This document shows positions 25,001 to 43,971 of a stretch of DNA of 64,000 bases, in pieces; position 1 is the stretch's first letter; each line of letters starts with the position of its first letter. The DNA lies in assembly GCA_030167865.1 (NCBI GenBank), contig JALAGF010004012.1, positions 1 to 64,000 on the forward strand, in the 5' to 3' direction. This DNA is from Craspedostauros australis (taxonomy: Eukaryota). The position numbers and the translations under genes are program-made. The notes beneath the pieces are model-generated. The model did not search any database. It was not told where the DNA came from and worked only from the letters and a program-made list of their open reading frames with translations.

Positions 25001-25863
25001 CCAGCACTGAGATTGGAAGCGTGTCGCAGAGAATCCGCGCAAGACGGCAGCTGCTCATCAACGACACCATCTGCCGAGAGTACGGAGTCCAGAACTTGCA
25101 ATCGTTGCATGAGAAGAACCTTCTGGAACTCGGGGAGGATCGCATGCTGACCACGCTGCTGTTGAACTGCTTCCCGGACATGCAGCTCATCTTCGTCCCG
25201 GAATCCACCTGCTGGACCGCCGTGCCGCACAGCTTCACGGTGTTGCTGAGCCAACGCCGGCGATGGATCAACTCCACGTTGCACAACATGCTAGAGCTGC
25301 TCCTCCATACCAAGCAGATGTGCGGTACGTGGTGCTGCTCGATGAAGTTCATCGTGCTCTGCGATCTGGCCATGACGATCCTCATGCCAGCAGCGTACTT
25401 GTACTTCATGACGGTGGCGTTGCCTGTCATCGTGACCGGTCCGTTCGGTGAGGATAGCACCGGTGGTGGCGGTGGCGATGCTGTCGTAGTTCTCGTCATC
25501 CCAGCCATGCTCATGATACCCTTCATCTTCCGGGCTCAATGGGAGTACCTGTTCTGGTTCGGAATGTATGTTGTACTGGGCCTTGGTGTCTTCTACTTCA
25601 TATTGCCCATCTACGCCATCTGCAACATGGATGATCTAAGCTGGGGCAAGACGCGGGAGCTGATCGAAGGAGCAACGGGCGCAGATACTGACAAGGATTA
25701 CAAGAAAGGCAAACGTGGTGATGGGCAAGTGGGTGCAGGAAGCATCGTGGATTCGGAGGCAAGGAACAACAATCGATCGAGCTTGCAACCATCAACGACC
25801 GCCACATCCCGGTCTCTTTCAGATCGTTGGGAATGCAACGATATCTCGGTCGGTTCCATCTGA
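22023..25863 (+). CDS. CHS: Chitin synthase with cytochrome-b5-like domains, no myosin head (exons 22023-22759, 23019-25863; ~1193 aa)
   Basis: Intron 22760-23018 (GTGCGT...GCAG) rebuilds RQAWREKVA. Motifs VPCYNE, GNRGKRDSQ, VDADT, QVFEY..SHHLKKAFES.FG.VTCLPGCFSMYR, LGEDRMLT, QRRRWINST, DDLSWGKTR; b5-like VSIFGAVYNVT and IAVGGRLYNVS. Confidence 0.95.
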
Positions 25864-26796: not shown

Positions 26797-29132
26797 CTAC
26801 TCCCCGCCGCCCGGAGCTGCGGTTGGCCCGCCAAGCGCATCCAAGGCCAGCTGGTAGGCATCGCGGCAATCCATATCCGATTCGGTCTCCAGCTGGGTCT
26901 CGAGTGCTGGCTTGACGGTGGTGTCGACGAAGGCCAGCTGGTTTTCCTCCCCGGCCTTCTTGACCGCCTCGATGACTTGCGCCAATCCCTTGCCGGCGAC
27001 CATTCTGACGTTGGCGACGCCGTCTGAGATTCCGCGCAGTAGCTGGAGCATGACATCATTCCACAACGAGCTTCCCTCCGGCGACGTTCCTGCGCATGCG
27101 ACGGCTGTGGCGGCATGGGCTTGCAGGATGGTGATGCGGATGAGGTAGCTGCCGTTGGCGGCGTGATTGTAAATCCGTACGTGCTGCGGTAATATCTGCT
27201 TGACGAGCCATTCCTGCCCAGCGGTTCGGACCAGGGTCTCCATGCCGCTGACGCATGCGGCGCGGACGCTGGCTACGGGGTCGAGGAGGAGTCCTAGCCA
27301 GCATGGTTCGAGGAGGACATTGGTGAAGAATTCTGCGCCGCGTGCCTGGCAGAGATGCGGGAGGAGACGACCGACGCCTTCCCTTACTCTCCAGTTGGTG
27401 GCGCCTGCCATGCTGAGGATGGTGCTGACGACGCCGTCCATGTCCTGCAGGAGGTGCGCGAGTTTGCCTAGGTTGTTGAGGACCTGCAGCTGCACCTCCT
27501 GGAAGTCGTCCTGCAGGAAAGATTCGAGGTAGGATCCGAAGGATTGGAGGATGAGGGTGTCTTCGAGGGTTCCGCCCTGCGACGAGTCCATGATGGCGAG
27601 GGCGCACTTACTTCGGATTTCCATGACGAGATCGTCGGCCAGGGTTGGGAGGAGGGGTTGGAGGTGGGATTGGAATAGTTCTGAGCCGCCCCAGTGGACC
27701 ATGGGTGCGAAATGTCCGACGGCTGCGGCACGGACCTCTGGTTCGACGTCGCTGAGGAGTGAGACGAAGCATGCCATGATCATGGTCTGGTCGGCCGCGT
27801 ATCTTGCGTCACCAGCGAAGCCCAGATTCTGCGCCACTTCAGAGAAGTGTTTCGAGAGATTGTGACGAACGCGCCTGTTGTGTGTGTGTGTGGTATGATG
27901 TGTGTGTGGCATAGCGTGGATGGTTGTGTTGTGACGGTGTGCAAGGGATGGGGATTGGATTGTTGCCGATGAGAAGAATTGGGTGAATTGTATGCATTGC
28001 ATGAATGTGTTGTTGTTAGAATCAAACGAGATGTGCCCCTGCAAAGTCCATTCCATAGAAGGGCAGTCCATATCAAAGTCCATTCCAAAGTCCACACCAA
28101 TGGAATTGAATTGAATGGATGTGATGTTTGTACTTACCAGCTCATGTCAGTGCTTCCAAGACGCACGAAGGGCGCAAAGTGCTCCTTGGTCCAATCGGGC
28201 GTGTTTGCGTAGGTGGGTCCGACATCCGCCAAGGTGGCAACGGCCAGCATGCGGACGGAATCCTGCTCATCCTGGCACAGGTTCGGCAGACAGATGGTGG
28301 CAAGTTCGTTTGCCGAGGCGCGCGACTGCTGACTGGCGTGCTTTCCGAGCTGCGCAAGGAGCTTGCCCAGGTTTTTGGAGGCCGCGCGTCGGACCATGGG
28401 CGTCTCGTCCTGACAGAGCTCGCGGTAGAGGTAGGGCAGCTCGGCGTGGTGCGTGACCTGGTAGAGGGTGGGGATCATGCCGGCGACGCTGACCTTGGGC
28501 GTGAACCAGTCCGCGGTGGTGCAGCGGCGCGCCATGCCCACGAGGGTCTGTGAGACGCTGGGCTCCACGAGCGGCGGCGGCGTGGTGGTGGGCGTGGGCT
28601 GGGCGGGCTGGGCGACGCTGCTGAGCTGCAGCTGCAGGGCGACGTGCTGCATGGTCTCCACGGCCTGGTCGCGCACGACGGTCTCCTCCACGGCCGCCAG
28701 GCGCTCGAGAATGGGGAGGAGGGTGAGCATCTGCTGCGGCGTGGAGAGGAGCGACGGCACCATGGCCTCGAGCTGCTTGCCCAGCATGAGGAGGATCTCG
28801 TCCTCCAGCACGACCTGCGCAGCGGCGGCTGCCTCCGCGGCTCCTGCGCCGGTGGCCGCCTGGCCCTGCTGCAGCACCAGGGACTGCAGGTACGGGATGA
28901 GCTGCCCCATGACCGCCTCATTATTTCCGCTCTCGCACATGGCGCGCGCAACCACCTGCAACCGCTTCATGGCGTCCACCTTGGCCTCCGTGGATCCTGA
29001 CGACATCTGCGACTGGAACAGGGCCAGCGGGGAGAGGTTGGGGATCTCATCGGCTGTTTGCGGCAGAGTGCGCGCCAACGTCATGCTGGGCGTTGGCGTC
29101 ACGCCGTTCATCTCGAAGCTCATGTTGGGCAT
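26797..29132 (-). CDS. PP2AA: Protein phosphatase 2A scaffold (A/65-kDa) subunit, HEAT repeats (exons 29132-28138, 27874-26797; ~690 aa)
   Basis: LERLAAVEETVVRDQAV, WFTPKVS, LCQDETPMVRRAAS, DEQDSVR, DMSW|RVR across the GTAAG...CAG intron 28137-27875, DVEPEVRAAA, NWRVR, YLIRITIL, VANVR. Confidence 0.93.
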
Positions 29133-30227
29133 CTTGTCTCTTGTCTGTTGTGGTCTGTTGGTGTTATGCTGTCTTTAGTTGGTGGTCTCTTGTGCTATGC
29201 TGTGGTCTCTTGTCTTGTGCTGATAGTCTACACTGGTGCCTCACACTATCTTGCTAACAATGTTCCTATCAGTGCTCCTATCAATGCTGCTCCTGCTGCT
29301 GGATGACCCTCGAAACCCCAACAAGACGCAAGCTCCAGCACTAAAGTCGGCAAGAAGGCTAGTCTGCGCGCAAATGTCCGCAAAGCACGAAACCTGAGGG
29401 GAATGTCTGTCTTGGTGCCTGTTGTTGCTGTTGCTGTTGCTGTTGGCGGCAATGGTGGTTGCTCCTCTCCGTGCGTTGGATTGGATCAATGAACCAGCTT
29501 ATGTTCTGCTGTCTCTCTTGTCTGTCTCCGGTGACGTTCTGTTGTTGCAAAGTCTATTACCGTGGGTGTTGGTGAGTGTTGTTACCGAGAGTCCAACTCT
29601 ACTCTGTCGTTGTTGCTGTTACTGTTGCTGTTGCTGTCGTTGTTACTCTCGCTGTTGCCCCTCGTGTGTGCGGTTGCGATACTTCTCCTCGCTGTCTTGG
29701 ATGTTGGCGTCGGATGTCTTCGTGCTCTCTCCATTGCCGATCCGCACCACGACGACGAACTCAACGCTACGCTGCAGTATCCTTCGCCACGGACAGAAAC
29801 AACACGGCACTGCGTACTGCGACGCAACGGACGCGAACAACCACGATGCCACCACCAAAAGATTAACAATGACGATGACCGAAACACGGTTCAAGAACAG
29901 ACGCAGCTCAAATCGAGTCGGATCATTCGAAAGTCGGGTCGTGCTCCTTGGCGCCAAAATCGGGTTTTCTTCCAGCCTGCGACCACGATGCGATTGTTGG
30001 TCGCGGTGGGCCTTGTTTGGTGTCCACGGCGAGGTCCACGATGGGTGTTGGACGCACGCTCCACACGATGCGAAAGCAAGCACATGGAATGGAACACTGA
30101 ATCGTGGAAACTCCCTGACACGCACGGCGCTTGTATTGGACTCGTTGCATCAGAGGCCGATTGTTCTGCTCTTGCACGCTCCACTCCATGCACATCACAT
30201 CACGGCGAATGCAAAAACACGTTTGTG

Positions 30228-32369
30228 ATGGATACGCCATGCAAGAGATGCAAGATAGGTGGTGCTGAACCTGCACACGCTGTCTTCGCAGGTGCCGACG
30301 GGATGAGTGGCAGCGAGGAGTCTGAATACGAGTACAACGAAGATGATGAAGATGATGATGATACGAATTGCAATCAAAGTACCATAAATCGCTCTGCAAC
30401 TGAGATATCTCGCATCATCGATCTGTGTTCCAACGAAAGAGCATCAAACATGGATGGCCATCTGAAAGAAGTGATGTCCGATCATCGAGATCATGACAAC
30501 GAAGATGTCTTTCATGATGATGGCGATCATGCCGATGATAGCGAACAGGAAGAGAGTGATGCAGAATCTTACATCTACGTGGACGAAGATGAACAGGACA
30601 ACAACAGCAATGCCAACAACGATGGTGATGCTGAATGCAATGCCCTGGTTGATCAGAGCGAAGCGCAACAATCAAGTATCCACACTGGGTCATCAACCGG
30701 CGGCCACGGCAACCTCCCATGTGATGGCGGGGCTGCTTCTGCTTTCGGTGCTTCATCATCTTGGCCAGTCGCCGTGAAGACTCATGGTGACGATGACCAT
30801 GACGATTACAAACCGGACACCACGAAAGATTCCAGCGTCTTCAAGGCAGAGAGGGCCCTCAACATGGCACAGAACCTTGCCTTCCGCATTCAGGCCATCC
30901 ACGACGAAGTCGTCGGAGGAAGCGGTGTCAAGGACAAATACCAAGACAAGGGCAAGGGTGTTGCCAGCAACACCAATAATGCCAGCCACGATGCCGGCTG
31001 GAATAGGACACTTGGTGGCGGCAACCACAGCCAACAAACCCCAATACCAAGGTCGGTGCATATCTCCAGGACAACGCACGCGCTCGCACCACCCCCTCCC
31101 GTTGACCTTGCGACCTTGGGAATCCAACCCTTCAAGAAGCTCGATCTCATCGTGTTGGCGCAGCGGTTGATCCATTGCCGCGACGAGTTCCGAAGGCAGA
31201 ACCGCCCGTTCCTCATCGACATTGGCTATCACTACACCGTCGGCCACAACCTGGATAAGATTGTCGATCACGGACTGCTCACCAAGTGCGACCGCGACAC
31301 GGAGGGCATCTGCAACAGGTTCAACGGCGCGGCCTACGGCAACGGCGTCTACACCTGCGACAACTTCGTCGGCACGACGAGCTACGGCGATATCGGTCTG
31401 GTCGTCGCACGTCTCCAAGGCACGCCCGAGTACGACCATCCAACGGACGCCGCAGCCAACACGGTAATCGTCCCAAAGAACGCGTACACGGTCCTCAAGA
31501 CATCGGCCCAGTGCTGCCCGCTGGTGCAGTACCCCACGTCGATGCTGCGACGATCCACGCAAGTGACGACCCTTCTGCACCGGTATCGCTGGAAGCTCCA
31601 GTGCTTGCTCGACGAGGTCTTCCACCAGGTGCCCTCCCCGGCCATCGAGCCACTGATGTCCAAAAAGGCCGGTTTTGAGTGTCCCGGCATCCCCCGGCGT
31701 TTCTTCATGGCGCTCGATGCGCTGGCGTACGATGCTCCCAAGAGGCTCAACGATTACATCCTTCCCGACATCTTTCGCGAGGTCACGGACATGAGCAGCC
31801 TCGACGAGGCTTCGCGAACGTGCTCCATGTGCCGAAGACCCACCGCCAACGCCCCATCCGTGTCCATGAGGTGCTGTTCCGAAGTGTGTCACAAGAAGTG
31901 CATCAGTAGCTGGTTCGACGGCCACCTGCATTGCCACAAGTGCAACAAAGCGGTGCCGACCACGATCGGCTCCATGCCCAACGGCACCATGATCGTGCAT
32001 CCTGATGATGCTCGCCCACAGAAGGGCACGGAGCCGTCTTGCCGAAGCGTGCGGATCGAGTACAGCATCGAGCGAGGCCATCAGAAGAGCTACCACCCGC
32101 ACCCCGGCAAATCATGGATCGGGGTGGCGAAATCCGCGGCCCTGCCGTACGTGACGGAGGAGGACAAGATGCGGCTGGGTAGATTGAAGTACGCCTTTCT
32201 GAATGGCCACGTCCTCATCCTCAAGGCGAATGCCTTCAAACACGTGACCATCGCGTGGGGCTCCATCCCGCATTTCGTGTCCGGCGTCGGACGCAACGAG
32301 CGGGACCTTGCGAGGATTGATGCGGCGCTGGACAACCTATGCATCCCCAACTTCGTCATGGAGGCTTGA
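30228..32369 (+). CDS. PARP-like ADP-ribosyltransferase domain + RING + Deltex C-terminal (DTC) domain protein (Deltex-like E3 ligase)
   Basis: ART-like DIGYHYT..NLDKIVDHGL..GAAYGNGVYTCD..SYG..ARLQG..AQCCPL (~31210-31535); RING CSMC..CCSEVCHKKCI..CHKC (~31820-31945); DTC GSMPNGTM..RIEYSI..GHQKSYHPHPG..RLKYAF..AWGSIPH. Start is 30228 or 30303; the ORF extension to 29562 does not look coding. Confidence 0.82.
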   Translation: MDTPCKRCKIGGAEPAHAVFAGADGMSGSEESEYEYNEDDEDDDDTNCNQSTINRSATEISRIIDLCSNERASNMDGHLKEVMSDHRDHDNEDVFHDDGDHADDSEQEESDAESYIYVDEDEQDNNSNANNDGDAECNALVDQSEAQQSSIHTGSSTGGHGNLPCDGGAASAFGASSSWPVAVKTHGDDDHDDYKPDTTKDSSVFKAERALNMAQNLAFRIQAIHDEVVGGSGVKDKYQDKGKGVASNTNNASHDAGWNRTLGGGNHSQQTPIPRSVHISRTTHALAPPPPVDLATLGIQPFKKLDLIVLAQRLIHCRDEFRRQNRPFLIDIGYHYTVGHNLDKIVDHGLLTKCDRDTEGICNRFNGAAYGNGVYTCDNFVGTTSYGDIGLVVARLQGTPEYDHPTDAAANTVIVPKNAYTVLKTSAQCCPLVQYPTSMLRRSTQVTTLLHRYRWKLQCLLDEVFHQVPSPAIEPLMSKKAGFECPGIPRRFFMALDALAYDAPKRLNDYILPDIFREVTDMSSLDEASRTCSMCRRPTANAPSVSMRCCSEVCHKKCISSWFDGHLHCHKCNKAVPTTIGSMPNGTMIVHPDDARPQKGTEPSCRSVRIEYSIERGHQKSYHPHPGKSWIGVAKSAALPYVTEEDKMRLGRLKYAFLNGHVLILKANAFKHVTIAWGSIPHFVSGVGRNERDLARIDAALDNLCIPNFVMEA

Positions 32370-32861
32370 GGTGTTGTCGCGCGCATCCCATCTGCGAGAA
32401 TAGAACGAAAATCATAAGGATAGAATCTGCATTGTACCGACGTGCGCTCCCATCACACTACCATTGTGCGATGTGGCGTGACGCTATATAGCACGTATTG
32501 TATGTATTGCTCTCTGCTCAACTTGTTGCGCTTTTGTTGCTTTCCTGTGTTGGCATCATCGGTGTGAGTGTACGATCTACTTGCGCTTACGCATCAGTAC
32601 GAGCAGGTGTGACATGTGCGCTGAAGATTTCGGAACACCCAAAAGATACCTCCACGTGGAATCAAGGCAAAGACGGTTCGTATCTTTGTGAAAGATCCAT
32701 CCAATAAATCTGCGCAGAGACGCAGCCAGCCAAGCCAGCAGACATCACATTGATTCTGTGGTGTGGACGACCCATGGCACAAACTATAACTCCAGAGCGT
32801 GGATGACAGTGCAGCTGCATCGCCCATCCATTGTTCAACGAGTAGGCGTACAATTGACAAC

Positions 32862-34367
32862 ATGTCTCGGTCGCTGCTGCGATTGCCGACGGCCTCTCTG
32901 GTGCAAAGATGTGCCATCCGACTGCAACGCCGATCCGCGTTCTCCGCACTGCAGAACGCTCTCCACGAGTCAGAGCACCATGAAGGGCATCGTGGACAGC
33001 ACCGTGGACAGCACCGTGGAGATGACAACAGCCCGCTGCCAGTCGAGGAGATCGTGCGACTGGACTCCGAACACGTGTGGCATCCCTACGCAAGCCTCCC
33101 CAACACGACCACGCCCTGCTTCCCCGTGGAACGAGCCGATGGGTGCACCATCACGCTGTCGGACGGCCGGCAGCTGGTGGACGGCATGTCATCCTGGTGG
33201 GCCTGCATCCATGGCTACAACCATCCCGTTCTCAACGAGGCCGCGCAGCAGCAGATCGGCAACATGTCGCACATGATGTTCGGTGGCCTCACGCACGAAC
33301 CGGCCGTCCGGCTTGCCAAGACGCTGTCCGACATGACGCCCCGTTGTGAGAAGAGGGCGTTGGATAAGGTCTTCTTCTGCGATTCGGGCAGCGTCGCGAT
33401 CGAGGTCGCCATGAAGATGGCGCTGCAATATCACTACAACCTGGCCGCCATCCAAGGCACCAGCGGCAACCCGCCAAGGTCCAAGTTCCTCACCATCTCG
33501 GGTGGATACCACGGCGACACCTTCCACGCCATGAGCGTTTGCGATCCGGTCAACGGGATGCACCATCTCTTCTCCAAGTCTTTGATACCGCAGATCTTCT
33601 GTCCGAGGCCCGAGATCACCGCCGATCAGGAGTGGAATGACGACGATCCGTCCTTGAAGGCTTTCTTTCAGCATCTCGACCACAACGAAGACGAGATCGC
33701 TGCCGTCATCCTCGAGCCCATCGTGCAGGGCGCGGGCGGAATGAGGTTCTACCATCCCAACTACCTCAAGGCCATCCGGGAGGCCTGCGATGACCGCGGC
33801 ATTCTGTTGATCGCCGATGAGATCGCCACCGGCTTTGGTCGATCCGGGGAGCTCTTCGCCTGCCAGCATGCCGACATCACACCTGACATCCTCTGTGTCG
33901 GCAAGGCTCTCAGCGGCGGTTTCCTCAGCTTTGCAGCTGCGATCACAACCGGCCAGGTGTCGGAGGTCTTCGCCCAGGGCCCCGCCGGCGTCCTCATGCA
34001 CGGACCCACCTTCATGGGCAACCCGCTGGCCTGCGCCGTGTCCGATGCCAATCTGCGCCTCCTGCAATCCTACGATTGGCATGGTACGGTTCGGGATATT
34101 GAAACGCAGCTGAAGCAGCAGCTGGAACCGGCCAAGCAGAGTCCCCACGTCCAGGATGTGCGCGTTATGGGCGCGATCGGTGTCATTGAGATGAAGGAGC
34201 AGATGAACATGAGTATTGTGCAACCGGAGCTCGTCCATGAGCACGGCGTGTGGTTGCGTCCGTTCGGGAAGCTGCTGTACACCATGCCGCCCTTCGTCAT
34301 CCAGAAGGAGGAGTTGCAAAGTATCACGGATGCCATGGTGAAGCTTGCTCATCGCGGTCCTCGGTAA
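32862..34367 (+). CDS. bioA: Adenosylmethionine-8-amino-7-oxononanoate (DAPA) aminotransferase with mitochondrial-type leader
   Basis: HVWHPY, VDGMSSWWACIHGYNHP, MFGGLTH, DSGSVAIEVAMKMALQY, YHGDT, EPIVQGAGGM, IADEIATGFGRSG, GKALSGG (PLP Lys), HGPTFMGNPLACA, WLRPFGKLLYTMPP; Arg/Ser/Leu-rich N-terminus. Confidence 0.96.
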   Translation: MSRSLLRLPTASLVQRCAIRLQRRSAFSALQNALHESEHHEGHRGQHRGQHRGDDNSPLPVEEIVRLDSEHVWHPYASLPNTTTPCFPVERADGCTITLSDGRQLVDGMSSWWACIHGYNHPVLNEAAQQQIGNMSHMMFGGLTHEPAVRLAKTLSDMTPRCEKRALDKVFFCDSGSVAIEVAMKMALQYHYNLAAIQGTSGNPPRSKFLTISGGYHGDTFHAMSVCDPVNGMHHLFSKSLIPQIFCPRPEITADQEWNDDDPSLKAFFQHLDHNEDEIAAVILEPIVQGAGGMRFYHPNYLKAIREACDDRGILLIADEIATGFGRSGELFACQHADITPDILCVGKALSGGFLSFAAAITTGQVSEVFAQGPAGVLMHGPTFMGNPLACAVSDANLRLLQSYDWHGTVRDIETQLKQQLEPAKQSPHVQDVRVMGAIGVIEMKEQMNMSIVQPELVHEHGVWLRPFGKLLYTMPPFVIQKEELQSITDAMVKLAHRGPR

Positions 34368-34767
34368 CAGCCATCTGCGTGTTGCTCATTGTGGCATAGG
34401 ACTCGTATTGTGCAAGGTCTTGCCTTGCCTAGCAGTTTGGTTGGTTGGTTGGTTGGTTGGGATTGATCAATACTGTGCCTTCAGTGCTGTTGCATTGGCG
34501 CGGATGTGTGCGACCTGTAGCTTACATACTCGTAGATGAGGGAGGTCGACAAGAAGCATGCTCGTACTCGCACAAGGGGAGCTGAAACGCACTGACCCGT
34601 TTATTCTTGGTGTGCACTGTCACCAGAGAAGACCATACTGCGAGTAGATATCATCGGTCTGTAGCGTCTGGATCAGATTCTATTTTAATTGCAGCCCCGA
34701 GCAGCTATGCTCGTATCTGTTCCGACTCCGTAGCGGTACTCGTAGCTGAATAGCGTCCTCCGCGCGT

Positions 34768-36975
34768 TCAATTGGCCAACTCCCCCTTAGCGGCCTTGGT
34801 GTTGTGGAAGTAAAAATAGCCTGCCTTGCGTGCCCGTTCCATGCATGGAATGCAGGCGCCCGGCCCGTTGCGTCCATTGTCCTCCTCCAGCCAGACCAGC
34901 TTGGATGCGGGCGGCGAGAACGATCCTGGTCGCTGTGTCTGTGATGGCGCCAAACAAGTCAATGGAGAAGTGGTCCCCTTGCCGCTGCTGTCGGGGGAGA
35001 TTTGCTTCGCGCGATCTCCACTCCCGTTGCCTCCCTCCGCAGCATCGACATTCTCCTTGCCGTCGCTCGCAGCATCCTGATCGACCTCCATGCCATCCCC
35101 GGGCTTGTCGGCGTCCAGGATGTTGGACACGGTCCACACCTTGGGACTGCAAGCTTTGCACACCACCTCGGTGCACCATCGGCACCGCTGGTAGTCGCAG
35201 TCCGAGCACAGGGCCTCGTGGCAGACGTTGCACCCATCCTTGAGAAGCTTGGCATCCTTGCAATCCTTGCAGTGCGGTCCGCACTTGGACTTGCACTGCT
35301 CCCAGGAATGCATATGCCGGCGGGAGCACCATGAGCAGAGCTGTTTGGGGCAGCTGGAGCATGTTTTGGCGTGGATACAGATGATCTGCTTGCAGAAATC
35401 GCATTGCGGCGCTTGTTTGCTCGGCGCAACAGTGCTGGCGTCCTTGTTTTTGCCGTTGGCTTGATTGCTGGATTCTTTGTGATCATGATCGGCTGTGGCT
35501 TTGTCGGCGCAGGCATCGATGCTGCCGTGGCAATCATCGCAGACGAGGCAGTTGGGCTGGATCTGATGGTGCCGGCAGCAGCAGTTCGTGAAAGACTGCA
35601 CCCATCCCGTCTTGTGGCACTTGAGGCAGGCCTTCTCCTGCACCAAGCGCTCATGTCGGCGCTGCACTTCCTCCAGTTGCAGAGTGTTGGGTGCGTTCGA
35701 GTCAACCGCTGTTGTTGTTGTTGTTGGATCTCCCTTGCCGGTTGTTGCCGGTGGTGTCGCAACCACGCTGGACTTTTGATCGTCATCAGCCGCATCCTCA
35801 GTGCTAGATGACGGTGTCATTGCTGACTTTGGCGGGGTGCTCGAAGTCGAATCTGATTGGATGGATTTGGATGGCGACACGTTGTTGTTGGTAGATTTGG
35901 ATGGATCATTGACACTGGCATTGTCATCACCTGCGATGGAAGAGAGGGGCGAGACTCTGGAAGTTGCGGGGTCACCCAAGAGCTTCTTCCCAGCTGGCGA
36001 CCTTGCAGCCTGGATCTCCGTCCGCAACCGATCGATGTGCACGCTGAGGCGGTCCAGGGTGTCGTTATCGAGAGAATGAAAGGCGTGCACGGGGACCTGC
36101 AAGATCATCTTGGCCCAAATGGAGCTGGTGGCCGAGGTGAGAAGAGCGGGTGGAGACGTGGCCACGGAAGATGTGAGCGCCGCCGGAGACGTGATGCTAG
36201 GATTGCCGACAGGCGGATGGTTTGCGTTGCCGTGAAGCGTGGCGATGTCGAAGTCCGAAGACGTGACTCGACGCGAGTGCATGGACTGCGGTGTCGGGAA
36301 GGAGGATGTCGGAGGAAAGACCTTGCGTCGAACATCTGACAGAGGGTTGTGGAAGTGATTGCTGGCGACCTCGCTGCGGCTTGCACTTGCAGCTGCCATG
36401 GCCAGCACATCCACACCGGCGGGTGTGCTCGCGCCATGCAGCAACGGAGTGCCCCGCGCATGCGCTCCCGTTGCCGGCCGTAGTCGAGGTTGGAGAAGAT
36501 GGTGGTTCTGCGAGAACGGTTGGTGCGGTTGCCGTGAATGATGCTGAGTGTAGGGTTGTGGCTGGAAGCTGGTGAGTCCAGAGAGGGCTTTCAGTTCGGT
36601 GGCAGAAACTCTGTGAGTGGCAAGTTCCGAGGTGATGGCCGCAGCGGTCTGACCAACCTTGATGCGTTTGTTCGGTCTGCCATCGTTTCCGCTGTTGGCA
36701 CTGCCACTGCCGATGCCGCTATTGAGCGGATGAGCCGGGTGGCTGTTCTCTTCCCTTGTCTTCATGTGAGCATTCGCCTGCAGCGACGCATTCGCCTGCA
36801 TCTGAGCTCCATGATAAGCGAACAAATAGTGGTGCTGACGATGTTGCTCCTTCTGTAGATGCTGCTCCATCAGCATGGGCAAGATGTCATCGCTGTCGCT
36901 AGCACTTGCAATACCGCTGTTGCCGCTGTTGGCATTGTTGGCACTGACCCCAGTGCTTCCCTGGGTGATGACCAT
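34768..36975 (-). CDS. Hypothetical protein: low-complexity N-half plus multi-CxxC (zinc-binding) C-half
   Basis: 735-aa uninterrupted ORF with more than 10 CxxC pairs (CDFC..CSSC..CSWC..CKDC..CNVC..CSDC..CRWC..CKAC) and an NLS-like RPNKRIK. Confidence 0.8.
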   Translation of the reverse strand: MVITQGSTGVSANNANSGNSGIASASDSDDILPMLMEQHLQKEQHRQHHYLFAYHGAQMQANASLQANAHMKTREENSHPAHPLNSGIGSGSANSGNDGRPNKRIKVGQTAAAITSELATHRVSATELKALSGLTSFQPQPYTQHHSRQPHQPFSQNHHLLQPRLRPATGAHARGTPLLHGASTPAGVDVLAMAAASASRSEVASNHFHNPLSDVRRKVFPPTSSFPTPQSMHSRRVTSSDFDIATLHGNANHPPVGNPSITSPAALTSSVATSPPALLTSATSSIWAKMILQVPVHAFHSLDNDTLDRLSVHIDRLRTEIQAARSPAGKKLLGDPATSRVSPLSSIAGDDNASVNDPSKSTNNNVSPSKSIQSDSTSSTPPKSAMTPSSSTEDAADDDQKSSVVATPPATTGKGDPTTTTTAVDSNAPNTLQLEEVQRRHERLVQEKACLKCHKTGWVQSFTNCCCRHHQIQPNCLVCDDCHGSIDACADKATADHDHKESSNQANGKNKDASTVAPSKQAPQCDFCKQIICIHAKTCSSCPKQLCSWCSRRHMHSWEQCKSKCGPHCKDCKDAKLLKDGCNVCHEALCSDCDYQRCRWCTEVVCKACSPKVWTVSNILDADKPGDGMEVDQDAASDGKENVDAAEGGNGSGDRAKQISPDSSGKGTTSPLTCLAPSQTQRPGSFSPPASKLVWLEEDNGRNGPGACIPCMERARKAGYFYFHNTKAAKGELAN

Positions 36976-37738
36976 CCTCGTTGCTCGTTATCCTGAGCTT
37001 CTTCTGTGGAGCTCTGCTCAATGTCCTAATGGATGCCGAGAAGCGTATGCTCACTTGTGATGTTCTTTGGCATGAGTTGTGATGTCAGTTGCGATAATGT
37101 CAGCTGCAATAATGTCAGTCTCCCCAGTGTGCGACTACTATCCCAAGCATGTGATTTATGACAGTGCAGATGTCGGATGCCCAATGTTCAATGCCCAATG
37201 CTCAATGTCCCGACGAGGAGCAATTGTGGAGAGAAGAGCACCCAACAAAGTCAGAGAGACGGAGAGACGGCTTCTTCCGACAATGTTCCAGTTTGTGTGA
37301 ATGGTTCGTACTGCGCGAGCAAGCGATTGCATCCGAGTACCAGAGTACTCGTAGAGTATTCCATACATGAGCCCCGGCAATACCACAACAGTACTCGTGC
37401 GCAGCTCGCGCAACACAGCAGAACACAACATGACGAGCTATCTGGTCCATTGCGATGCATTGCCATCACTCCTTTTTATTCATGACTGCGTGGCGTGCTG
37501 AGCTATCGCGACGAACAACGCGGCACAGAAACTCAAAAAATGCGGGCACATGATTTGGCGTCAAAAAATGATCTCGGCGCTCGGTATTTGTGTGTGTTCG
37601 TCATGTGCATCCGACATGCACATTGGCGAGCTCCCTTCATCGTCTAATACAAGTATGAGTTTGAAACAGGATGACCTTGCGCACTTCGGTGGCGCACACA
37701 TACATGTCGCGATAGCTCTCCAACCGTTAGCAGTATGA

Positions 37739-38760
37739 CAGGCTCAGACCGTTAACGGACGTTAAAAAGGCCTTAGACACATCAACCACTTCTAGTTTCA
37801 ATTTGAATGCTACAACCAGTCATCAGTATGCTGTGGTGTTACGCAGAGTAGAGTGGAGCAGAGAACAAGCAACGTGTGTTGTCGAAACCAGGTGGCAGCA
37901 AAAGCCGGTGTCGTTGGAGGACGCCATGGAAGCATCTGTGACCCACAAGTTGATCGATGCACAGCGGGTCTTGGTGTGCGGTTGCCAGACGTGTCAGAGC
38001 TGAGTCCTCGAGTGTGATACGCACAGAAATGAGAGCCACGAAGAGCAGCATAACATTGCACCGCAGAGGACGACAAAGGATGGCATCGTCCTCCAGCATT
38101 CACAGTGCGAAACCAATTCGACATCAATGGATGAGGCAGTCGCAGATGATGGACAATACGAACCATGCGTCCTCGCATGGTACATGCCTTGCAGTGGCCT
38201 GCTTGCCTACCAAACCTTCTCATCAGATTGGGAACTTGCGGAAACGGCTTGGACCTGTGATGAGCTGATGGATCATGGTTCATACTGTGTCTTCGTCCAG
38301 TCGTGCATCGTGTCGCGCCACATAGGGGTCACGGTAATGTGTTCATTCACCATACTATTGAGTGAACGCTGTGTCCGTTGTTCTGTTTGGAAACGCTGAG
38401 TCGTACTGTTCACACCATGTATTGCGCTGGAGTCCAGGACAAGCAACCATCTCTGGTTGTGATGCAACGTTCGGTGCTTTCAATTAAGCCACATGTCACA
38501 GGAAGCTAGTGGATTGGTTCCGATTTCGGCCGCACTTAAAATGGATACATATGTAAGAGACATTTCAAGTGTCGTGAGAGTGTCACATCGATCCCGCCGC
38601 GCTGCATTGTCGAACGTCGTGACGCACAAACGTGCATATATGGCGATGAGTCAAAATGTCTCTGTGCAGCCTCGATGTTGACCTGTGGTGCATTCAAACC
38701 ACCCACCGCTTTGGTGCCAGCAAAACTACAATTTGTCGTGGTTCGTTTGCCGCGCCGGAT
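37739..38760 (+). mobile_element. Possible highly degenerate hAT-like DNA transposon fragment
   Basis: CAGGCTCAGACCGTTAACGGACGTTAA terminus-like segment with CCGTTA repeats; broken frames with CGCQTC, GNLRKRL and SLDVDLW (cf. hAT SLTxDxW). Weak evidence. Confidence 0.2.
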
Positions 38761-39243
38761 GCAGTAGGACACCACGTCAACAATAGAAGAACAACGCCGA
38801 GACAGTGTTTCATGTGTGGAGGCTCTTTTGTTGTTGTTTGGGCAACGACAACACCGCTACCAAGAACAGCCAGAGCGACGACAGGAGCAACAGCAACCAC
38901 GACAGCAGCAAGAAAGAGGCGCGGCGCCGACAATGGAGATGTTGGGAACGACGGCACAGAGAAAAACACCCACGTCGCAACACACACCAGTTGCCATACC
39001 CACACCCACACTCAAAGGTACTACACCAAGCGCATCCCACACTTCGCGCTCCACAAGGGACGACAAGTTAGCACGAAGCAGTTCACGATCACGGAGGAGG
39101 AAAACACAAAATAGCGAAGTCGCCAACAGTTGTCCGCAGCAGACAGACAGACACCGTGTGAAAAGGTGCTTGCAAAGCAGGAGTGGGGTTTGGCTTGGCT
39201 TGACTTCGCGGGGACCGCCGTGGATAACGAAGGGTGAACGTTG

Positions 39244-39283
39244 TGACAGCATTGACAGCATTGACAGCATTGACAGCATTGAC
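39244..39283. repeat. 9-bp tandem repeat (TGACAGCAT)x4
   Basis: tgacagcat tgacagcat tgacagcat tgacagcat tgac. Confidence 0.9.
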
Positions 39284-39699
39284 GACGGCAGTACTTATAC
39301 CATCATCACCACCTCGTCCATAAACATCGAAACAGAACGATACGAATTCGACCCAAAATTGGAGAGGTGGACGAAGGCAGCGGGACAGACCATCGTTCGT
39401 GGTGACCAGTGGCGGAGATCTCTCCCTCACACAATCACAGACACCCGCGCAACGCAACACAGCGCGTACGACTTGTGGTGCCCTGAGTCAGTCCACCACA
39501 TCCCGTCCTCTACGCTCCTGGTATTGTCGCTTAACCGTTTCCTGTTTCATCTTCAACGGCGAACGCCCAAGAGCCTCCTTTCCAATTGCCACAGAGCGCA
39601 CGAGCGTGGAGATCGTTATACTCCATCAAAGGTGTGATAGGTGATAATCGAGAGTACTATACTACTACTACTAGTACTACTCTACTCCAGCAAGGACCG

Positions 39700-41934
39700 A
39701 TGGATTTGGATCAGGGCTTCGTCGTGGTCAACGTGCGCTCGGACAACGAGCACGAAGCTCAAGCCACCAAAGCTGAGGAGGAAGTATTTCGGCAGGCAGC
39801 AGCATCATTTGACGCGGCACCGGCGTCGCCTTCGTCCTTAGAACCATCTGCTGGGGAGGTCGAATCGTCACCAGTCCCATCATCCACCAATACCGGCCAC
39901 AACCATCGATACTTCCATAATCAACATCACAACATCAACCACAACGACAACGACAACCACAACTACGAGTACGGCCAACACCACAATCACAACCAAAGCC
40001 ACAGCAACCATCACCCACATAACCACAACCACAGTTACGGCCTAAATCACACGCCAAGTCACTCTCACAATTTCGAGAGCAACCTCACCACTCGCGCAGA
40101 ACAATCTGGCCAAAGGCCAACATCAAGCAACGTGTCGGTTTCCACCTCCGGGTCAGGGTCTGCATGTCGGTCAGCGACAGACCCAGGCCACCTCTTCGTT
40201 TCGCCGTCTCCAGATTGTCACAACTTTTATGAATCACCATCCCAAAGTCCGCACTTGCATCTCTATCAGCAGCAGCAACACTATCAGCAACGGCAACATC
40301 GACAACAACAACGACAACAACGACAGCAACAACGACAACAACTTGAGCATCATCACCAGTATCGACAGCAGCGTCAGGACCTTGACCAGAGTCAGTACCA
40401 GTATCAGTCTTCGCAGCAACCGCAGCAGCAGCAAAGCGGCCTTGGACGTCAGTACATCCAGTCAACCCAACTTGCCCAATCAACACCATCGTCATCGTCA
40501 ACGTCGTCGTCGCAACAGTACTCGAGCGGTACAGAGCAACAATCCTTGGACGAGCGAAACAGACTGATCGAGCAGCAGCAGCAGTGGCTCATCGAACAAC
40601 AACGCCAGCTACAAAGAGAACAGCAGAGACTGCAACAGCAGCGACAGCAGCTTGAACGTCAGCAGAGATTGCAGGCGGAACGCGAGGAGCACATCCGAAG
40701 GTTGCGAGAGCTCGATCAGCAGCTGGCGATTGGCTCAGCCTATCCATCAGCACCACCGCTCACGACATCCCGCAGCGAAACCGTCGCCGGCAGCAGCAAC
40801 AGCAGCAGCAACAGTTACACGAGCAACGCAGACGTCCCTTCCATGCCGCCACAACGCCGAACCAGATCCGCAGACGCTCACCAGCTCCTGCACAACCCAG
40901 GCATATTGCGCACACCCATGGAGCCTCGGTTCGAGCAGCGCCAACGCACGCGCTCCTCGCCACATCCGCAGCCATATCACCATGCGCGTTCTCATGCTGA
41001 CTATCAGCAACCGCCACGGCCGCTCTCGCCCCACGCTGCTGCCTACGGTATACCGGAGGAGGACATCGGCGCTCCCAACATGCAAGCAGATGCGGACCTC
41101 AGTCAGCACGACTCGGACAGCCAAATCGAAAAGGACAGCGAGGTCGCGCGCTTCCTGCAAAAGCAGGAGGAAACGCAGGCCATGATCGAAGCGCACAACT
41201 CCGTTCAGAACGAGCACTCCGAGATGCTCTGCACTCCCTGCGGCAGGGCCATTCTATTCGTCGAAACCGTGTGCGATGCCTGGAGGCGGGTCCTCAGCCA
41301 GGAGACGCCATCCGTCCGAGGGGCCGTACGCTTCGTCATCCGCCAGGAGGAGATCATCCCGAAGGTGGAGCAGCTCCTCGAGATCCAGGACATCTACAAG
41401 GCGTGCGGGAAGCCGGCCGACATCGACCTAGGCTACTACTTCGCCACCAGCGACGAGGTGTCCGCGGTGCGCACTTCTGGAATCCAAGTCGCCTATCCAG
41501 ATCTCAGCCGCATCAACGCCCACGGCGATCACCACAACGTGCACATCTTCGGCGAGGGCGTGTACACTTCGGACGCATTCAGCAACATCGCCATGAGGAG
41601 CAAGCAGGTCGCCATGTCGGTCATCCGTCTCAAGGGCAAGGTCGGCACCGTCCGCGTTGTCCAGCCAGAAAACCGCATGTTCGTCAAGCTTGACAACGTC
41701 AGCGAGGACACAGAGTTCGACACGTTGCTCGGCAATTCCACCATCCCATCGCACACCTTCACACCCGGAAACTGCCCGAACGATCAGGTGGTCCTCAAGA
41801 CGGCGCAGCAGTGCCTTCCCCTCATTCAGTTCCCAACCGCCATGGTGCGCAATCCGAATCACGCCGTTCTCTTGCGTCGCCTGCACGACACGCTCAATGG
41901 GATCATCAGCACCGTGTTGAACGCGGGTGTTTGA
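39700..41934 (+). CDS. His/Gln-rich protein with MIU-like motif and degenerate PARP-like ART domain (paralogous to the domain in 30228-32369)
   Basis: KPADIDLGYYF..VRTSGI..FGEGVYTSDAF..IRLKG..VVLKTAQQCLPLIQFP aligns with RPFLIDIGYHYT..YGNGVYTCDNF..ARLQG..TVLKTSAQCCPLVQYP; DSEVARFLQKQEE; no RING or DTC. Confidence 0.82.
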   Translation: MDLDQGFVVVNVRSDNEHEAQATKAEEEVFRQAAASFDAAPASPSSLEPSAGEVESSPVPSSTNTGHNHRYFHNQHHNINHNDNDNHNYEYGQHHNHNQSHSNHHPHNHNHSYGLNHTPSHSHNFESNLTTRAEQSGQRPTSSNVSVSTSGSGSACRSATDPGHLFVSPSPDCHNFYESPSQSPHLHLYQQQQHYQQRQHRQQQRQQRQQQRQQLEHHHQYRQQRQDLDQSQYQYQSSQQPQQQQSGLGRQYIQSTQLAQSTPSSSSTSSSQQYSSGTEQQSLDERNRLIEQQQQWLIEQQRQLQREQQRLQQQRQQLERQQRLQAEREEHIRRLRELDQQLAIGSAYPSAPPLTTSRSETVAGSSNSSSNSYTSNADVPSMPPQRRTRSADAHQLLHNPGILRTPMEPRFEQRQRTRSSPHPQPYHHARSHADYQQPPRPLSPHAAAYGIPEEDIGAPNMQADADLSQHDSDSQIEKDSEVARFLQKQEETQAMIEAHNSVQNEHSEMLCTPCGRAILFVETVCDAWRRVLSQETPSVRGAVRFVIRQEEIIPKVEQLLEIQDIYKACGKPADIDLGYYFATSDEVSAVRTSGIQVAYPDLSRINAHGDHHNVHIFGEGVYTSDAFSNIAMRSKQVAMSVIRLKGKVGTVRVVQPENRMFVKLDNVSEDTEFDTLLGNSTIPSHTFTPGNCPNDQVVLKTAQQCLPLIQFPTAMVRNPNHAVLLRRLHDTLNGIISTVLNAGV

Positions 41935-43971
41935 AAACACGAATGGCCAAATGTGAATGGACATCGGCTCTGACCCTTGTCCTGCCATGCATCGGTTTTT
42001 GAGGTGACAAGTATTCTACTCAGCAGGATGATTGAGTCGGGTCGCACGATTTGCTCTACTGCCCGACACGCCCATGCACGCATGATGATGATGGAGGAGG
42101 AAGGCACATGCTCTAGCAGGGCACATACGTACGAGCGGATGCGCGCCTGTAACTGTGATGGGTTCCCACGCGAAACAATCCAGCGGGTGTCAAAGAAAGA
42201 AGGCGCCAAGCAGGATCCGATGATCCTCGTTCGGTCTCAATGCACGCCATCATGTTGATACAGCCGATGGACAACAGCGTGTCAAACGAACGCCGTAAGA
42301 AGATTGAAATTGGGTCTCCAGAGCGTCCTCGTCGAGTATTCTGGTGGTACAATACTATTATACCAAGCCATCCCGTAGGACAGCAGAGCGCTTCACCACT
42401 GTATTTACCCTAACGAGCAAAGTTAAGGATAGGACGAGTCGCTGGTTCCTGGTACGAGCTGCTGCACCAACATCATATCTGGTATCACATCTTGTTTCTC
42501 TGCCGTTCGCACCTCTCTAACTGCCCAGATTGCAACAACCCAAACCAATCTCACGGCCAAAGAATGGGACACCAATGCTCTTCATGTTCTTCACATTCGC
42601 ACTTGATGGCTGCGCTTCCGATTGCTGATGTCGTCATCGTTCCCGTTTCTGCCAGTGCGTGGTCCATTTCTCATTTTGCCACTGGTCAACACATCGGCTC
42701 TCATTTGCGTATTGTTCTGGCGCGTGCCCTTGAACTCGTGACAGCCAGAGCACGTCTCAGGCGCGTGCTTCGTAACACACAAGTCACGACAAAGGATGCA
42801 GCGTTCGCTCTGTCAGAAAGGAACCGTTCTACACAAGGAAGACCTGGGGAGCAAGTCGGAGGCCAGACGTATTGCGTGTATTTTAGAAGCTCCCCTTCCA
42901 TGCCGGTTGGGGGCAGCCAAGTACGAGCACAAGTACAAAGAGGAGTACTCAATCGGATGGATGTAAATCTCCGTCCAAGGAATTCCGTTGTTCCACACAA
43001 GAGCTCCTGGGTACGCGATTCCGTCACTTCGGAGAGGAGCTTGTGCTGGTATGGCACGAGGAGGACCAAGAGAACAAGCGAGAAAAGTGGGCGTCAATTG
43101 ATGGTTGTGGAATGGCGCTCTGTCACCAAGCTTCGCCAGCATTGGTGTGGCCAATTGTTCTCGACGTGCCCTCGACGACGGCCTTTTCGGTCCTCACATT
43201 TTGGATCTCATCACACAATAGCTCGTACAGATCGTATGCACTGGAACAGGAGCACATGGATTTCCACCAGCCATGGGATTGTTTGGATTGTTGTTTGGAG
43301 ACGAAGAGAATGAGAGCGCATTGGTGCGAACAGAGTCCTCGCACACTTCTCCTAGAACCATGCTCGTACTAGTACGAGCTACACGTGCGTATGATGGTGT
43401 GCGACACATGTGGAAGCCAAGTGGCTGTCTTGGATACTATTCTATTCAACCGACGTCCGATTACTTGCTCATCTCGTCCATGAAGGGTTCGGCCATTCTG
43501 CGTTGCAGGAATGACAAGGCAAGCACCTCGGATCCTTTCGGGCTTGGAATCATTTGGCGCAGGCACAGACATAATCACAATCGCTGAGCCAACGCGGTGA
43601 CATGCGAATGCAAAGTTCCGTATGCACCCTGGACAGTGCAGCATGCCAAAAGCGAGAAAAGGCATGATACCAACCGCAAACGGACCAAGCCCCACACTCG
43701 TTGACATGAGACGGAGCAACGTTGTGCTCTGCAACTAGTCGAGCACTCGCACATCGCATCGAATCGAATCGAATCGAATTGTACCAAGCGCTTGCATCAT
43801 GTGTGCTCGTAGGAGCTCACCAATCGCACAGCCCGACTTCCGCAGATGGTATCCTCATAAAACGACCATCCCAAACTATTCTACTCCACTCTACTCTAAA
43901 CCCATACTCTGCACTTGCCACTGTACGAGTATTGCAATACAGTATCAACATTAACATCATATAATATCATC

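Follow-up and report, generated by a model that had tools for sequence, protein, structure and literature searches.

A diatom PARP-like protein that has lost its catalytic residues and RING-DTC module and retains a MIU-like motif

The protein P0001, encoded in the 64-kb stretch of Craspedostauros australis DNA analysed here (the window), carries a modelled PARP-type ADP-ribosyltransferase (ART) fold in which the His of the catalytic triad is replaced by Tyr and the usual Glu by Gln, and it lacks a RING-DTC module; these changes, together with a MIU-like motif, are conserved in an ortholog expressed by a diatom of a different genus. We propose, with a probability of roughly 0.55, that P0001 is a catalytically dead, RING- and DTC-less offshoot of its family that binds ubiquitin through its MIU and serves as an adaptor, reader or competitive regulator, not as a writer. 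Such a protein would be unable to transfer ADP-ribose, its MIU helix would hold ubiquitin, either as mono-ubiquitin or as chains, and its PARP-like body may bind what its active relatives handle, be it substrates, partners or ADP-ribosyl marks. The N-terminal half, which is of low complexity and coiled-coil-like, may multimerise or localise the protein, and the whole would operate within a diatom ADP-ribose/ubiquitin pathway.

P0001 is encoded by a single uninterrupted frame on the forward strand that requires no intron (39700-41934, 744 codons plus stop), with its first ATG at 39700 behind an in-frame stop at 39532-39534 and with a C-terminus at the same point as that of P0003, an ortholog known from a transcriptome. 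Its N-terminal half contains a His/Asn-rich low-complexity tract (39895-40080, residues 66-127; 32% His and 25% Asn over residues 66-125) that cannot be aligned to P0003, a Gln/Arg-rich tract (40252-40446, residues about 185-250; 48% Gln, 12% Arg) and a Gln/Glu/Arg-rich stretch (40546-40734, residues 283-345) whose composition suggests a coiled coil. The sole match of residues 280-348 was to the coiled-coil family CREPT, below the Pfam threshold (E 0.0033), and a stretch of similar composition occurs in P0003. The C-terminal module begins with four lead-in helices (41113-41403, residues 472-568; model helices 3-40, 44-63, 68-73 and 80-99), the first of which holds the MIU-like motif DSEVARFLQKQEE (41134-41172, residues 479-491; pLDDT 88-98), and ends with the PARP-like ART core (41407-41931, residues 570-744). 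Pfam found no RING, DTC or macrodomain in P0001, and a six-frame scan of the whole window revealed just one RING-DTC, inside the neighbouring gene P0002, and none 3' of P0001. A hidden downstream RING-DTC exon was thus ruled out by the scan, and P0003 stops at the same point. The frame, the motif and the low-complexity tracts had been drawn by an earlier sequence-only reading and are all in place, and the lack of a RING-DTC in P0001 that it had noted is borne out by Pfam and by the window scan. No RNA run was listed as carrying the sequence; a sequencing run of uncertain kind (RNA being a guess), with 0.27 of words, gave a 1124-nt contig identical to 41321-42434 and, over the rest of 29000-42500, only short patchy pieces.

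The module of P0001, about 260 positions comprising MIU, lead-in and core as defined by profile A1, belongs to a family of 830 representative proteins that Pfam does not detect and whose members, wherever an organism is given, all come from diatoms. The common order is one or more MIU motifs, the helical lead-in, the PARP-like domain and the RING-DTC, the last being present in 60 of 151 representatives, which databases name "deltex-like" or "DTX2". P0001 shares 19-32% identity across the module with 48 family members, scores 197.8 bits against a profile of 160 family rows (P0001 itself among them), and is nested with 95% support in a clade of 27 rows; it sits among members with the His-Tyr-Glu (H-Y-E) triad. 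A literature search limited to openly accessible text found no description of a diatom family with MIU, PARP-like domain and RING-DTC.

The assignment of the C-terminal domain of P0001 to the PARP-type ART fold is carried by its structure model. AlphaFold2, given an alignment of 50 sequences, modelled residues 470-744 with a pLDDT of 90.8 and a pTM of 0.84. Foldseek matched this model to 150 PDB entries at E <= 0.001 (best E 6e-6), the top rows listed all being PARP1 or PARP3 catalytic domains, and VIA-align gave Z >= 8 for 365 of 997 chains, led by PARP10 (Z 11.2, rmsd 3.2, 145 aligned) and followed by the Arabidopsis RCD1 PARP domain (5ngo_E, Z 11.0) and PARP13 (4x52_A, Z 10.4). The ART-like domain of the sequence-only reading is thereby confirmed at the level of the model. 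PARP10 is also the only PARP reached by the family sequence profile, which aligns both the His strand and the G-x-G-x-Y strand (E 1.3), and against DarT the His strand aligns at E 6.6e-4. The Pfam PARP family PF00644 matched neither P0001 nor P0002 even at E <= 1 and gave three sub-threshold matches among 88 relatives (19.8-21.8 bits against a cut-off of 26.7), and a search with the relative P0051 retrieved no PARP. The nearest ESM Atlas clusters carry PF00644 (score 0.91, 138-139 shared features), which lies under the reliability level and is a lead only.

The MIU consensus is reportedly D-x-x-[LV]-A-x-x-L-Q-x-x-E-E, as defined by Penengo and colleagues in 2006. MIUs dock on the Ile44 patch of ubiquitin, and a mutated central Ala abolishes the interaction. 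Across the six-frame ORFs of the window (86,776 residues), the strict pattern matches once, at residues 479-491 of P0001, within a single model helix, and the family motif D-x-x-L-A-x-x-L-Q-x-x-E-E lines up with this segment (D 85, A 83, L 75, Q 73 and E 58 in the MIU columns over 95 rows). The pattern occurs 100 times in 71 of 153 family proteins, compared with 0.35 in shuffles, always N-terminal of the domain; 26 of the 153 contain two or three copies, tandem copies are also present at loci L122 and L123, and the motif is found in H-Y-E members that bear the RING-DTC. As judged from these alignments, the MIU is an ancestral trait of the entire family and no mark of the inactive copy. The motif highlighted by the sequence-only reading is thus real, and identical at 15 of 16 positions in P0003, but it is family-wide rather than special to P0001. 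In canonical MIUs the Leu-Gln pair is highly conserved, according to one passage of a published account (PMC5824887). These features suggest that the MIU helix of P0001 may bind ubiquitin. A sequence search of the PDB with a 40-residue piece around the motif returned no match. Two relatives gave Pfam matches to CCDC50_N, both sub-threshold (E 1.4e-4 and 4.5e-4) and given no weight here. A complex prediction for residues 470-744 with ubiquitin (from a viral contig), made without the family alignment, reached no verdict (score 0.07, mark 0.34) and speaks neither for nor against binding.

Does the helix bind ubiquitin, or is it part of the architecture? P0001 might be a dead PARP-like scaffold in which the MIU-like helix is a structural helix of the lead-in, or binds another ligand such as a ubiquitin-like or Atg8-type protein or an E2, a minority possibility that we take seriously. 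The helix sits in a modelled bundle (pLDDT 88-98, pTM 0.84) and may be packed, and MIU1 of CCDC50 is described in the cited part of one report as also contacting LC3 (PMC13059773). However, the conserved polar residues D1, Q9 and E12/13 and the near-invariant small Ala are more in keeping with a face that binds a ligand than with packing in a core. The tandem copies, which lie upstream of the module in the 26 of 153 proteins and at L122 and L123, further indicate that the motif behaves as an autonomous, repeatable unit.

The only other family member in the window is P0002 (29562-32369), which lies upstream of P0001 on the same strand across a 7.3-kb gap that holds two unrelated genes, one for an aminotransferase and the other a Cys-rich ORF that runs on the opposite strand. 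P0002 has a PARP-like domain with an H-Y-Y triad, a RING (31821-31949) and then a DTC, the latter a partial Pfam match (profile 2-83 of 133; E 5.4e-9, 36.8 bits). The homology between the two proteins that the sequence-only reading had claimed is well founded, as BLASTP aligns residues 547-740 of P0001 with residues 524-687 of P0002 (46 of 199 identical, 23%; E 9e-12) and both fit the family profile. The claim of a shared helical lead-in holds in part: P0002 contains no match to the MIU pattern, and its alignment to the family profile starts at position 74, which means that the MIU and the first helices are either absent or past recognition. With a tip branch of 2.3 and a tree position apart from P0001 on a long branch, P0002 is, on its sequence, a divergent member of the family. 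The trees place the two genes in different parts of the family, and P0001 as a recent tandem duplicate of P0002 was rejected on these grounds.

P0001 could nevertheless be a dedicated partner of P0002, in the manner of PARP9-DTX3L, with P0001 providing the MIU and P0002 the catalysis and ligase activity; this would be a special case of the explanation we prefer, and we regard it as unlikely. It would account for two sole family members lying on one strand 7.3 kb apart and for their complementary features, P0002 being without a MIU and P0001 having one while lacking His, Glu, RING and DTC, and the family member P0008, which joins Y-Y-E and H-Y-E domains in tandem in one chain, indicates that degenerate and intact copies can function together. 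Yet the two are not sister genes, P0001 falling in the H-Y-E clade and P0002 on its separate long branch, the aminotransferase gene and the opposite-strand Cys-rich ORF stand between them, and in a family with hundreds of known members two copies within 10 kb require no functional link. A metagenome scan for P0002-type genes gave 16 loci, most shorter than 4 kb, and none showed a second family gene within these flanks, which are too short to bear on linkage. Assembly through the Q-rich region, as the sequence-only reading had envisaged, falls away: P0002 has no Gln-rich region to pair with that of P0001, and even P0003 cannot be aligned to the first 470 residues of P0001, which leaves no basis for it. 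The proposed pair of an active writer, P0002, and an inactive reader, P0001, keeps its second half insofar as the catalytic residues of P0001 are lost; the first half meets a divergent protein with a partial DTC and no MIU, and the trees do not show a recent pair. Neither the partnership nor the Q-rich assembly has support beyond proximity.

A bolder proposal assigns both halves of the module to one mark. The RING-DTC module of animals ubiquitylates ADP-ribose. P0001 might be a two-part reader of ADP-ribosyl-ubiquitin, its dead NAD pocket receiving the ADP-ribosyl group and its MIU the ubiquitin, and its active relatives might be single-chain writers of this hybrid mark, in which the MIU would set ubiquitin or a ubiquitylated target beside the ART site and the RING-DTC. 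We consider this decidedly unlikely. If true, P0001 would be the first pseudo-PARP reader of ADP-ribosyl-ubiquitin, and a whole signalling system would be placed in diatoms, for which one passage of a 2010 survey gives PARPs as absent from Phaeodactylum and Thalassiosira (PMC2964712).

The preferred reading of P0001 as a dead, ubiquitin-binding offshoot depends on the loss of its active site. P0001 has GYYFA at residues 578-582 (nt 41431-41445) where P0002 has GYHYT (residues 555-559). The family motif "YhYt" aligns with "YHGT" of PARP10 and places Tyr580 (codon TAC, 41437-41439) at the His position, in agreement with the replacement of the NAD-binding His that had been noted from the letters; of the 157 family rows, 154 have His in this column and three have Tyr. 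The Tyr of the G-x-G-x-Y strand, present in 153 of 157 rows, is retained in P0001 as Tyr622 (41563-41565), its G-x-G-V-Y-T aligning with "GKGVYF" of PARP10. The third position is occupied by Gln696 (codon CAG, 41785-41787), which opens model strand 227-230 and which we take to be the position of the PARP catalytic Glu from its place in the model and PARP topology; of 153 rows, 84 show Glu here and three show Gln, a substitution absent from the sequence-only reading. Among 152 family domains, 81 have H-Y-E, and Y-Y-Q is confined to P0001 and its ortholog.

The two substitutions do not weigh equally. The third triad position is Glu in poly-ARTs and a hydrophobic residue in many mono-ARTs, and many active mono-ARTs lack the Glu but have the His, which, as far as is known, contacts NAD+ in all enzymes of the H-Y-E class. 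As 68 of the 152 family domains already lack the Glu (M, V, L and others) with the His retained, loss of the Glu is by itself weak evidence, and the loss of the His bears the argument. On this basis P0001 probably no longer transfers ADP-ribose. Retained activity through a non-canonical Y-Y-Q site would be in keeping with the preserved overall fold and G-x-G-V-Y-T strand and with purifying selection on the domain, but P0001 lacks a His kept in 154 of 157 domains, the two residues that follow it are also changed (H-Y-T to Y-F-A), the inactive PARP domains of RCD1 and PARP13 are among its best structural matches, and the ART core is the segment least conserved between P0001 and P0003, at 45%; we hold such activity to be very improbable.

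P0003 comes from a Stauroneis constricta transcriptome and is 52% identical to P0001 from the MIU to the C-terminus, with 15/16 identical residues in the MIU, 51/75 in the lead-in and 78/175 in the core. It shares the Tyr and Gln substitutions, ends directly after the module and matches no Pfam family. The two form a clade with 100% support whose stem, 1.36 by FastTree and 1.98 by IQ-TREE, exceeds every other internal branch, while its tips are of ordinary length (0.4-0.7). The domain of P0001 is, as this sequence comparison indicates, under purifying selection, and with a single known ortholog the case for its conservation is built on a pair of sequences; when metagenomes were scanned for orthologs of the P0001 type, 211 pattern stretches matched and no relative was among them. 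That P0001 is a decaying, functionless copy, as the lost catalytic residues and RING-DTC, the very long stem and the low-complexity expansion of its N-terminal half might suggest, is barely credible against a frame open over 2.2 kb, a transcriptome ortholog in another genus with the same Tyr, Gln and C-terminus and a 94% identical MIU, and ordinary tips beyond that stem.

What do these findings mean for ADP-ribose signalling in diatoms? Diatoms hold hundreds of PARP-fold domains that are too divergent for Pfam, within proteins annotated merely as Deltex-like ligases. One chain in this family combines a ubiquitin-binding-type motif, a mono-ART-like domain and a RING-DTC, and the crosstalk that in animals is split among PARP10 or PARP14, DTX ligases and RING-UIM readers may be hard-wired here. 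P0001 is a natural experiment in this respect: its lineage has lost His, Glu, RING and DTC and kept the MIU almost unaltered, which points to a binding role, and it may give a handle on the targets of the pathway. Deltex-family genes are described in part of a study of four diatoms as induced during sexual reproduction (PMC12618581), so that a biological setting for such work exists.

Several known systems resemble P0001 in part. As in PARP9-DTX3L, in which an inactive or weak PARP forms a stable heterodimer with a Deltex ligase, a degenerate PARP gene lies near a RING-DTC ligase gene, and the human pair is described in the cited part of a preprint as adjacent and co-regulated (bioRxiv 10.64898/2026.04.23.720386). 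However, PARP9 has macrodomains, of which Pfam finds none in P0001; the human genes are arranged head-to-head on one promoter, whereas P0001 and P0002 share a strand with 7.3 kb and two genes between them; and the ligase P0002 itself bears a PARP-like domain. PARP10/ARTD10, the best structural match to P0001, resembles the diatom family in that its mono-ART domain is accompanied by short helices that bind ubiquitin. It is active, with an H-Y-I triad. Its motifs are UIMs, whose helix runs in the orientation opposite to that of MIUs, an RRM is present, and no member of its family is known to have a Deltex module, in contrast to the diatom family. PARP10 is reported to bind K63 chains through two ubiquitin-interaction motifs (PMC4695847) and to be a substrate of ADP-ribosyl ubiquitylation (PMC12000418).

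The diatom motif, as predicted from sequence, resembles the MIUs of Rabex-5, RNF168 and CCDC50 in forming one helix with a central Ala, a following Leu-Gln and an acidic end, and these too are often in tandem; in those proteins the MIU is not known to occur together with an ART domain. One report describes RNF168 as a RING protein that contains MIUs (PMC2699339), and CCDC50 is described in a passage of another as binding K63 chains with two MIUs (PMC13059773). With the Deltex ligases the parent family of P0001 shares the RING-DTC, both parts of which P0001 lacks, and the N-terminal domains of animal Deltex proteins are WWE or others and not PARP-like, unlike those of the diatom family. The closest parallels to P0001 itself are the C-terminal domain of PARP13/ZAP and the PARP domain of Arabidopsis RCD1, both of which are inactive; PARP13 presumably has Tyr at the His position, as P0001 does. 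P0001 shows no relationship to either at the Pfam sequence level, is without zinc fingers, WWE and RST, and differs in the MIU-like helix fused to its domain and in its descent from a RING-DTC family. What it would share with them is a PARP fold without the H-Y-E triad, kept as a binding module.

Judged from its sequence, P0001 is a genuine and conserved pseudoenzyme. A single open frame of 744 codons on the + strand (39700-41934) encodes it, with an in-frame stop 166 nt 5' of the first ATG, and the last 275 residues of the protein form a conserved module. An AlphaFold2 model of this module (residues 470-744, 50-sequence alignment) has a pLDDT of 90.8 and a pTM of 0.84; in it, four helices lead into a beta core. 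Foldseek gave 150 matches in the PDB at E ≤ 0.001, and the top rows, among the matches listed, are all catalytic domains of PARP1 or PARP3. With VIA-align, Z scores were 11.2 for PARP10, 11.0 for the PARP domain of Arabidopsis RCD1 and 10.4 for PARP13, and 365 of 997 chains reached Z ≥ 8. In addition, the family profile aligned its G-Y-H-Y-T to L-Y-H-G-T of PARP10 and its Y-G-D-G-V-Y-T to Y-G-K-G-V-Y-F (E 1.3), and its His strand also to the DarT His strand (E 6.6e-4). As Foldseek, VIA-align and the profile alignments all match PARPs, the modelled domain is assigned to a divergent PARP-class ART fold.

How widespread is this architecture? Word-indexed searches returned one close relative of P0001, its ortholog P0003 from a Stauroneis constricta transcriptome (52% identity), and three relatives with RING and DTC, one from Cylindrotheca closterium, for P0002, the upstream ART-RING-DTC paralog (29562-32369, + strand). 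A profile built from six sequences (P0001, P0002 and their relatives) matched 830 of 1.84 billion representative proteins at E ≤ 0.001; of these, 317 reached E ≤ 1e-30. The named member organisms, Stauroneis, Cylindrotheca, Pseudictyota, Thalassiosira and Seminavis, are all diatoms, centric and pennate, and most remaining members come from metagenome or run assemblies. Pfam scans of the best 151 representatives (two scans, thresholds 1e-3 and 1e-5) found DTC in 60 and RING alone in 7 more; the other 84, many possibly fragments, carry no ligase domain, and a few of the 151 have TAZ, KIX, UBA or bromodomains. Two PARP-like domains each are present in P0116, P0124 (Seminavis robusta, annotated 'DTX2') and P0147. 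The last has no Pfam match at E ≤ 1e-5; P0116 and P0124 additionally carry RING, DTC and, at the C-terminus, a bromodomain, a hint that one branch of the family is directed at chromatin. The Pfam PARP model matches neither P0001 nor P0002 and reaches only sub-threshold scores in 3 of the 88 family proteins scanned at E ≤ 0.001. Hundreds of diatom proteins labelled only Deltex-like or hypothetical hold a domain of PARP fold that escapes Pfam PF00644. A 2010 survey lists diatoms as apparently without PARPs (PMC2964712), and no description of the family was found in the open-access main texts searched.

Active-site columns were counted over 160 aligned family domains. The first is His in 154 of 157 rows and Tyr in 3, the second Tyr in 153 of 157, and the third Glu in 84 of 153, Gln in 3 and otherwise mostly hydrophobic. 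This third position opens the second-to-last strand and lies eight residues ahead of an invariant Gln; from its modelled strand and PARP topology, we take it to be the probable position of the PARP catalytic Glu. Of 152 family domains, 81 have the triad H-Y-E, and Y-Y-Q is confined, among these 152, to P0001 and P0003. The His replacement described in the sequence-only reading (GYYFA in P0001, GYHYT in P0002) was confirmed in the two translated ORFs. P0008, a transcript-derived MMETSP protein of 475 aa, has two tandem PARP-like domains that are sisters with 99% support, the first Y-Y-E (tip branch 1.13) and the second H-Y-E (0.04); by sequence it shows, independently of P0001, a degenerate copy retained beside an intact one.

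The MIU-like motif, DSEVARFLQKQEE, is present at 41134-41172, and every other sequence item in that reading was likewise found in its place. It characterises the family as a whole: of the 95 rows extending far enough to include it, 85 have D, 47 L at position 4, 83 A, 75 L, 73 Q and 58 E. Its pattern has 100 matches in 71 of 153 family proteins, versus 0.35 in shuffled sequences, all N-terminal to the PARP-like domain; 26 of the 153 have two or three copies, and tandem copies also occur in two metagenome loci. Polar positions that are conserved and a motif repeated in tandem are what one would expect of a ligand-binding helix acting as an autonomous unit; by the MIU consensus, it would be a candidate ubiquitin binder. 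Canonical MIUs are described as strongly conserving Leu-Gln (PMC5824887), and the tandem MIUs of CCDC50 bind K63 chains (PMC13059773).

MIU columns were excluded from both trees (FastTree, 157 rows; IQ-TREE, 44 rows selected from the clade of P0001 plus outgroups). P0001 groups with P0003 in a clade supported at 100%, which FastTree places among H-Y-E members with RING-DTC. Its stem measures 1.36 (FastTree) or 1.98 (IQ-TREE) substitutions per site, the longest internal branch of the IQ-TREE tree, and the two tips are ordinary in length (0.4-0.7). Alignability of the two proteins begins exactly at the MIU, with identities of 15/16 in the MIU, 51/75 in the lead-in and 78/175 in the ART core. The long stem, ordinary tips and segment identities fit a burst of change at the time when the ligase module and, presumably, catalysis disappeared, after which purifying selection would have acted, most strongly on the MIU and lead-in.

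The N-terminal 470 residues of P0001 are of low complexity, with one tract rich in His and Asn (residues 66-125; 32% His, 25% Asn), another in Gln and Arg (186-250; 48% Gln) and a Gln/Glu/Arg stretch of coiled-coil-like composition (283-345), whose sole match is sub-threshold, to the coiled-coil Pfam family CREPT (E 0.0033). This half was probably gained and is probably multimerising. A public-run contig, of uncertain run kind, extends from 41321 inside the gene to 500 nt beyond the stop (41935-42434) with zero differences; if the run is RNA, the part past the stop would be a long 3' UTR.

Does P0001 work with its neighbour? The two domains are paralogous, as had been proposed (BLASTP, residues 547-740 versus 524-687, 23% identity, E 9e-12), and Pfam agrees that P0001 has neither RING nor DTC and finds DTC in P0002, a six-frame scan counting one RING-DTC in the whole window. 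Of the helical lead-in thought to be shared, only the last part is common, as the family profile aligns P0002 only from position 74. P0002 is by sequence itself an unusual member: some 70 low-complexity residues break up its lead-in, it has an H-Y-Y triad and zero MIU pattern matches, its tip branch, at 2.3 (FastTree), is very long and lies away from the P0001 clade, and its DTC match is partial (profile positions 2-83 of 133, 36.8 bits), against about 112-152 bits in many relatives with full-length matches. P0001 as reader may pair with P0002 as writer, a possibility based only on the proximity of the genes and the complementary MIU loss in P0002; the suggested assembly through the Q-rich region found no support.

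The window consists of ordinary nuclear DNA of diatom-like character. Genes near P0001 encode a kinase, a class-III aminotransferase, a DEAD-box helicase and a chitin synthase (22525-25863, + strand; PF03142, E 1.4e-130), the last of which agrees with the window being of diatom origin. Between the P0001 and P0002 genes lies a 735-residue ORF (34768-36975, - strand) whose C-terminal third contains many Cys-x-x-Cys pairs and which matches no Pfam family at E ≤ 1e-4. Another ORF (8929-10419, + strand) has a 2'-5' RNA ligase/LigT-like 2H phosphoesterase domain (PF13563, E 1.3e-27); enzymes that act on derivatives of ADP-ribose 1''-phosphate belong to this superfamily.

In conclusion, we favour, at a probability of roughly 0.55, a reading of P0001 as a dead offshoot of the diatom MIU/PARP-like/RING-DTC family that would have lost RING and DTC, gained its low-complexity half and retained a putative ubiquitin-binding-type helix on a PARP-shaped body, and whose likely role in an ADP-ribose/ubiquitin pathway is that of an adaptor, a reader or a competitive regulator. 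We are much more confident that its domain belongs to this family and has an inactive PARP fold. P0001 is neither a Pfam PARP member by score nor a Deltex protein. For the dead domain, the closest analogues are PARP13 and RCD1. PARP10, itself a substrate of ADP-ribosyl ubiquitylation (PMC12000418), is the closest analogue for a mono-ART with ubiquitin-binding helices (PMC4695847), and PARP9-DTX3L is the closest for the P0001/P0002 gene arrangement (bioRxiv 10.64898/2026.04.23.720386).
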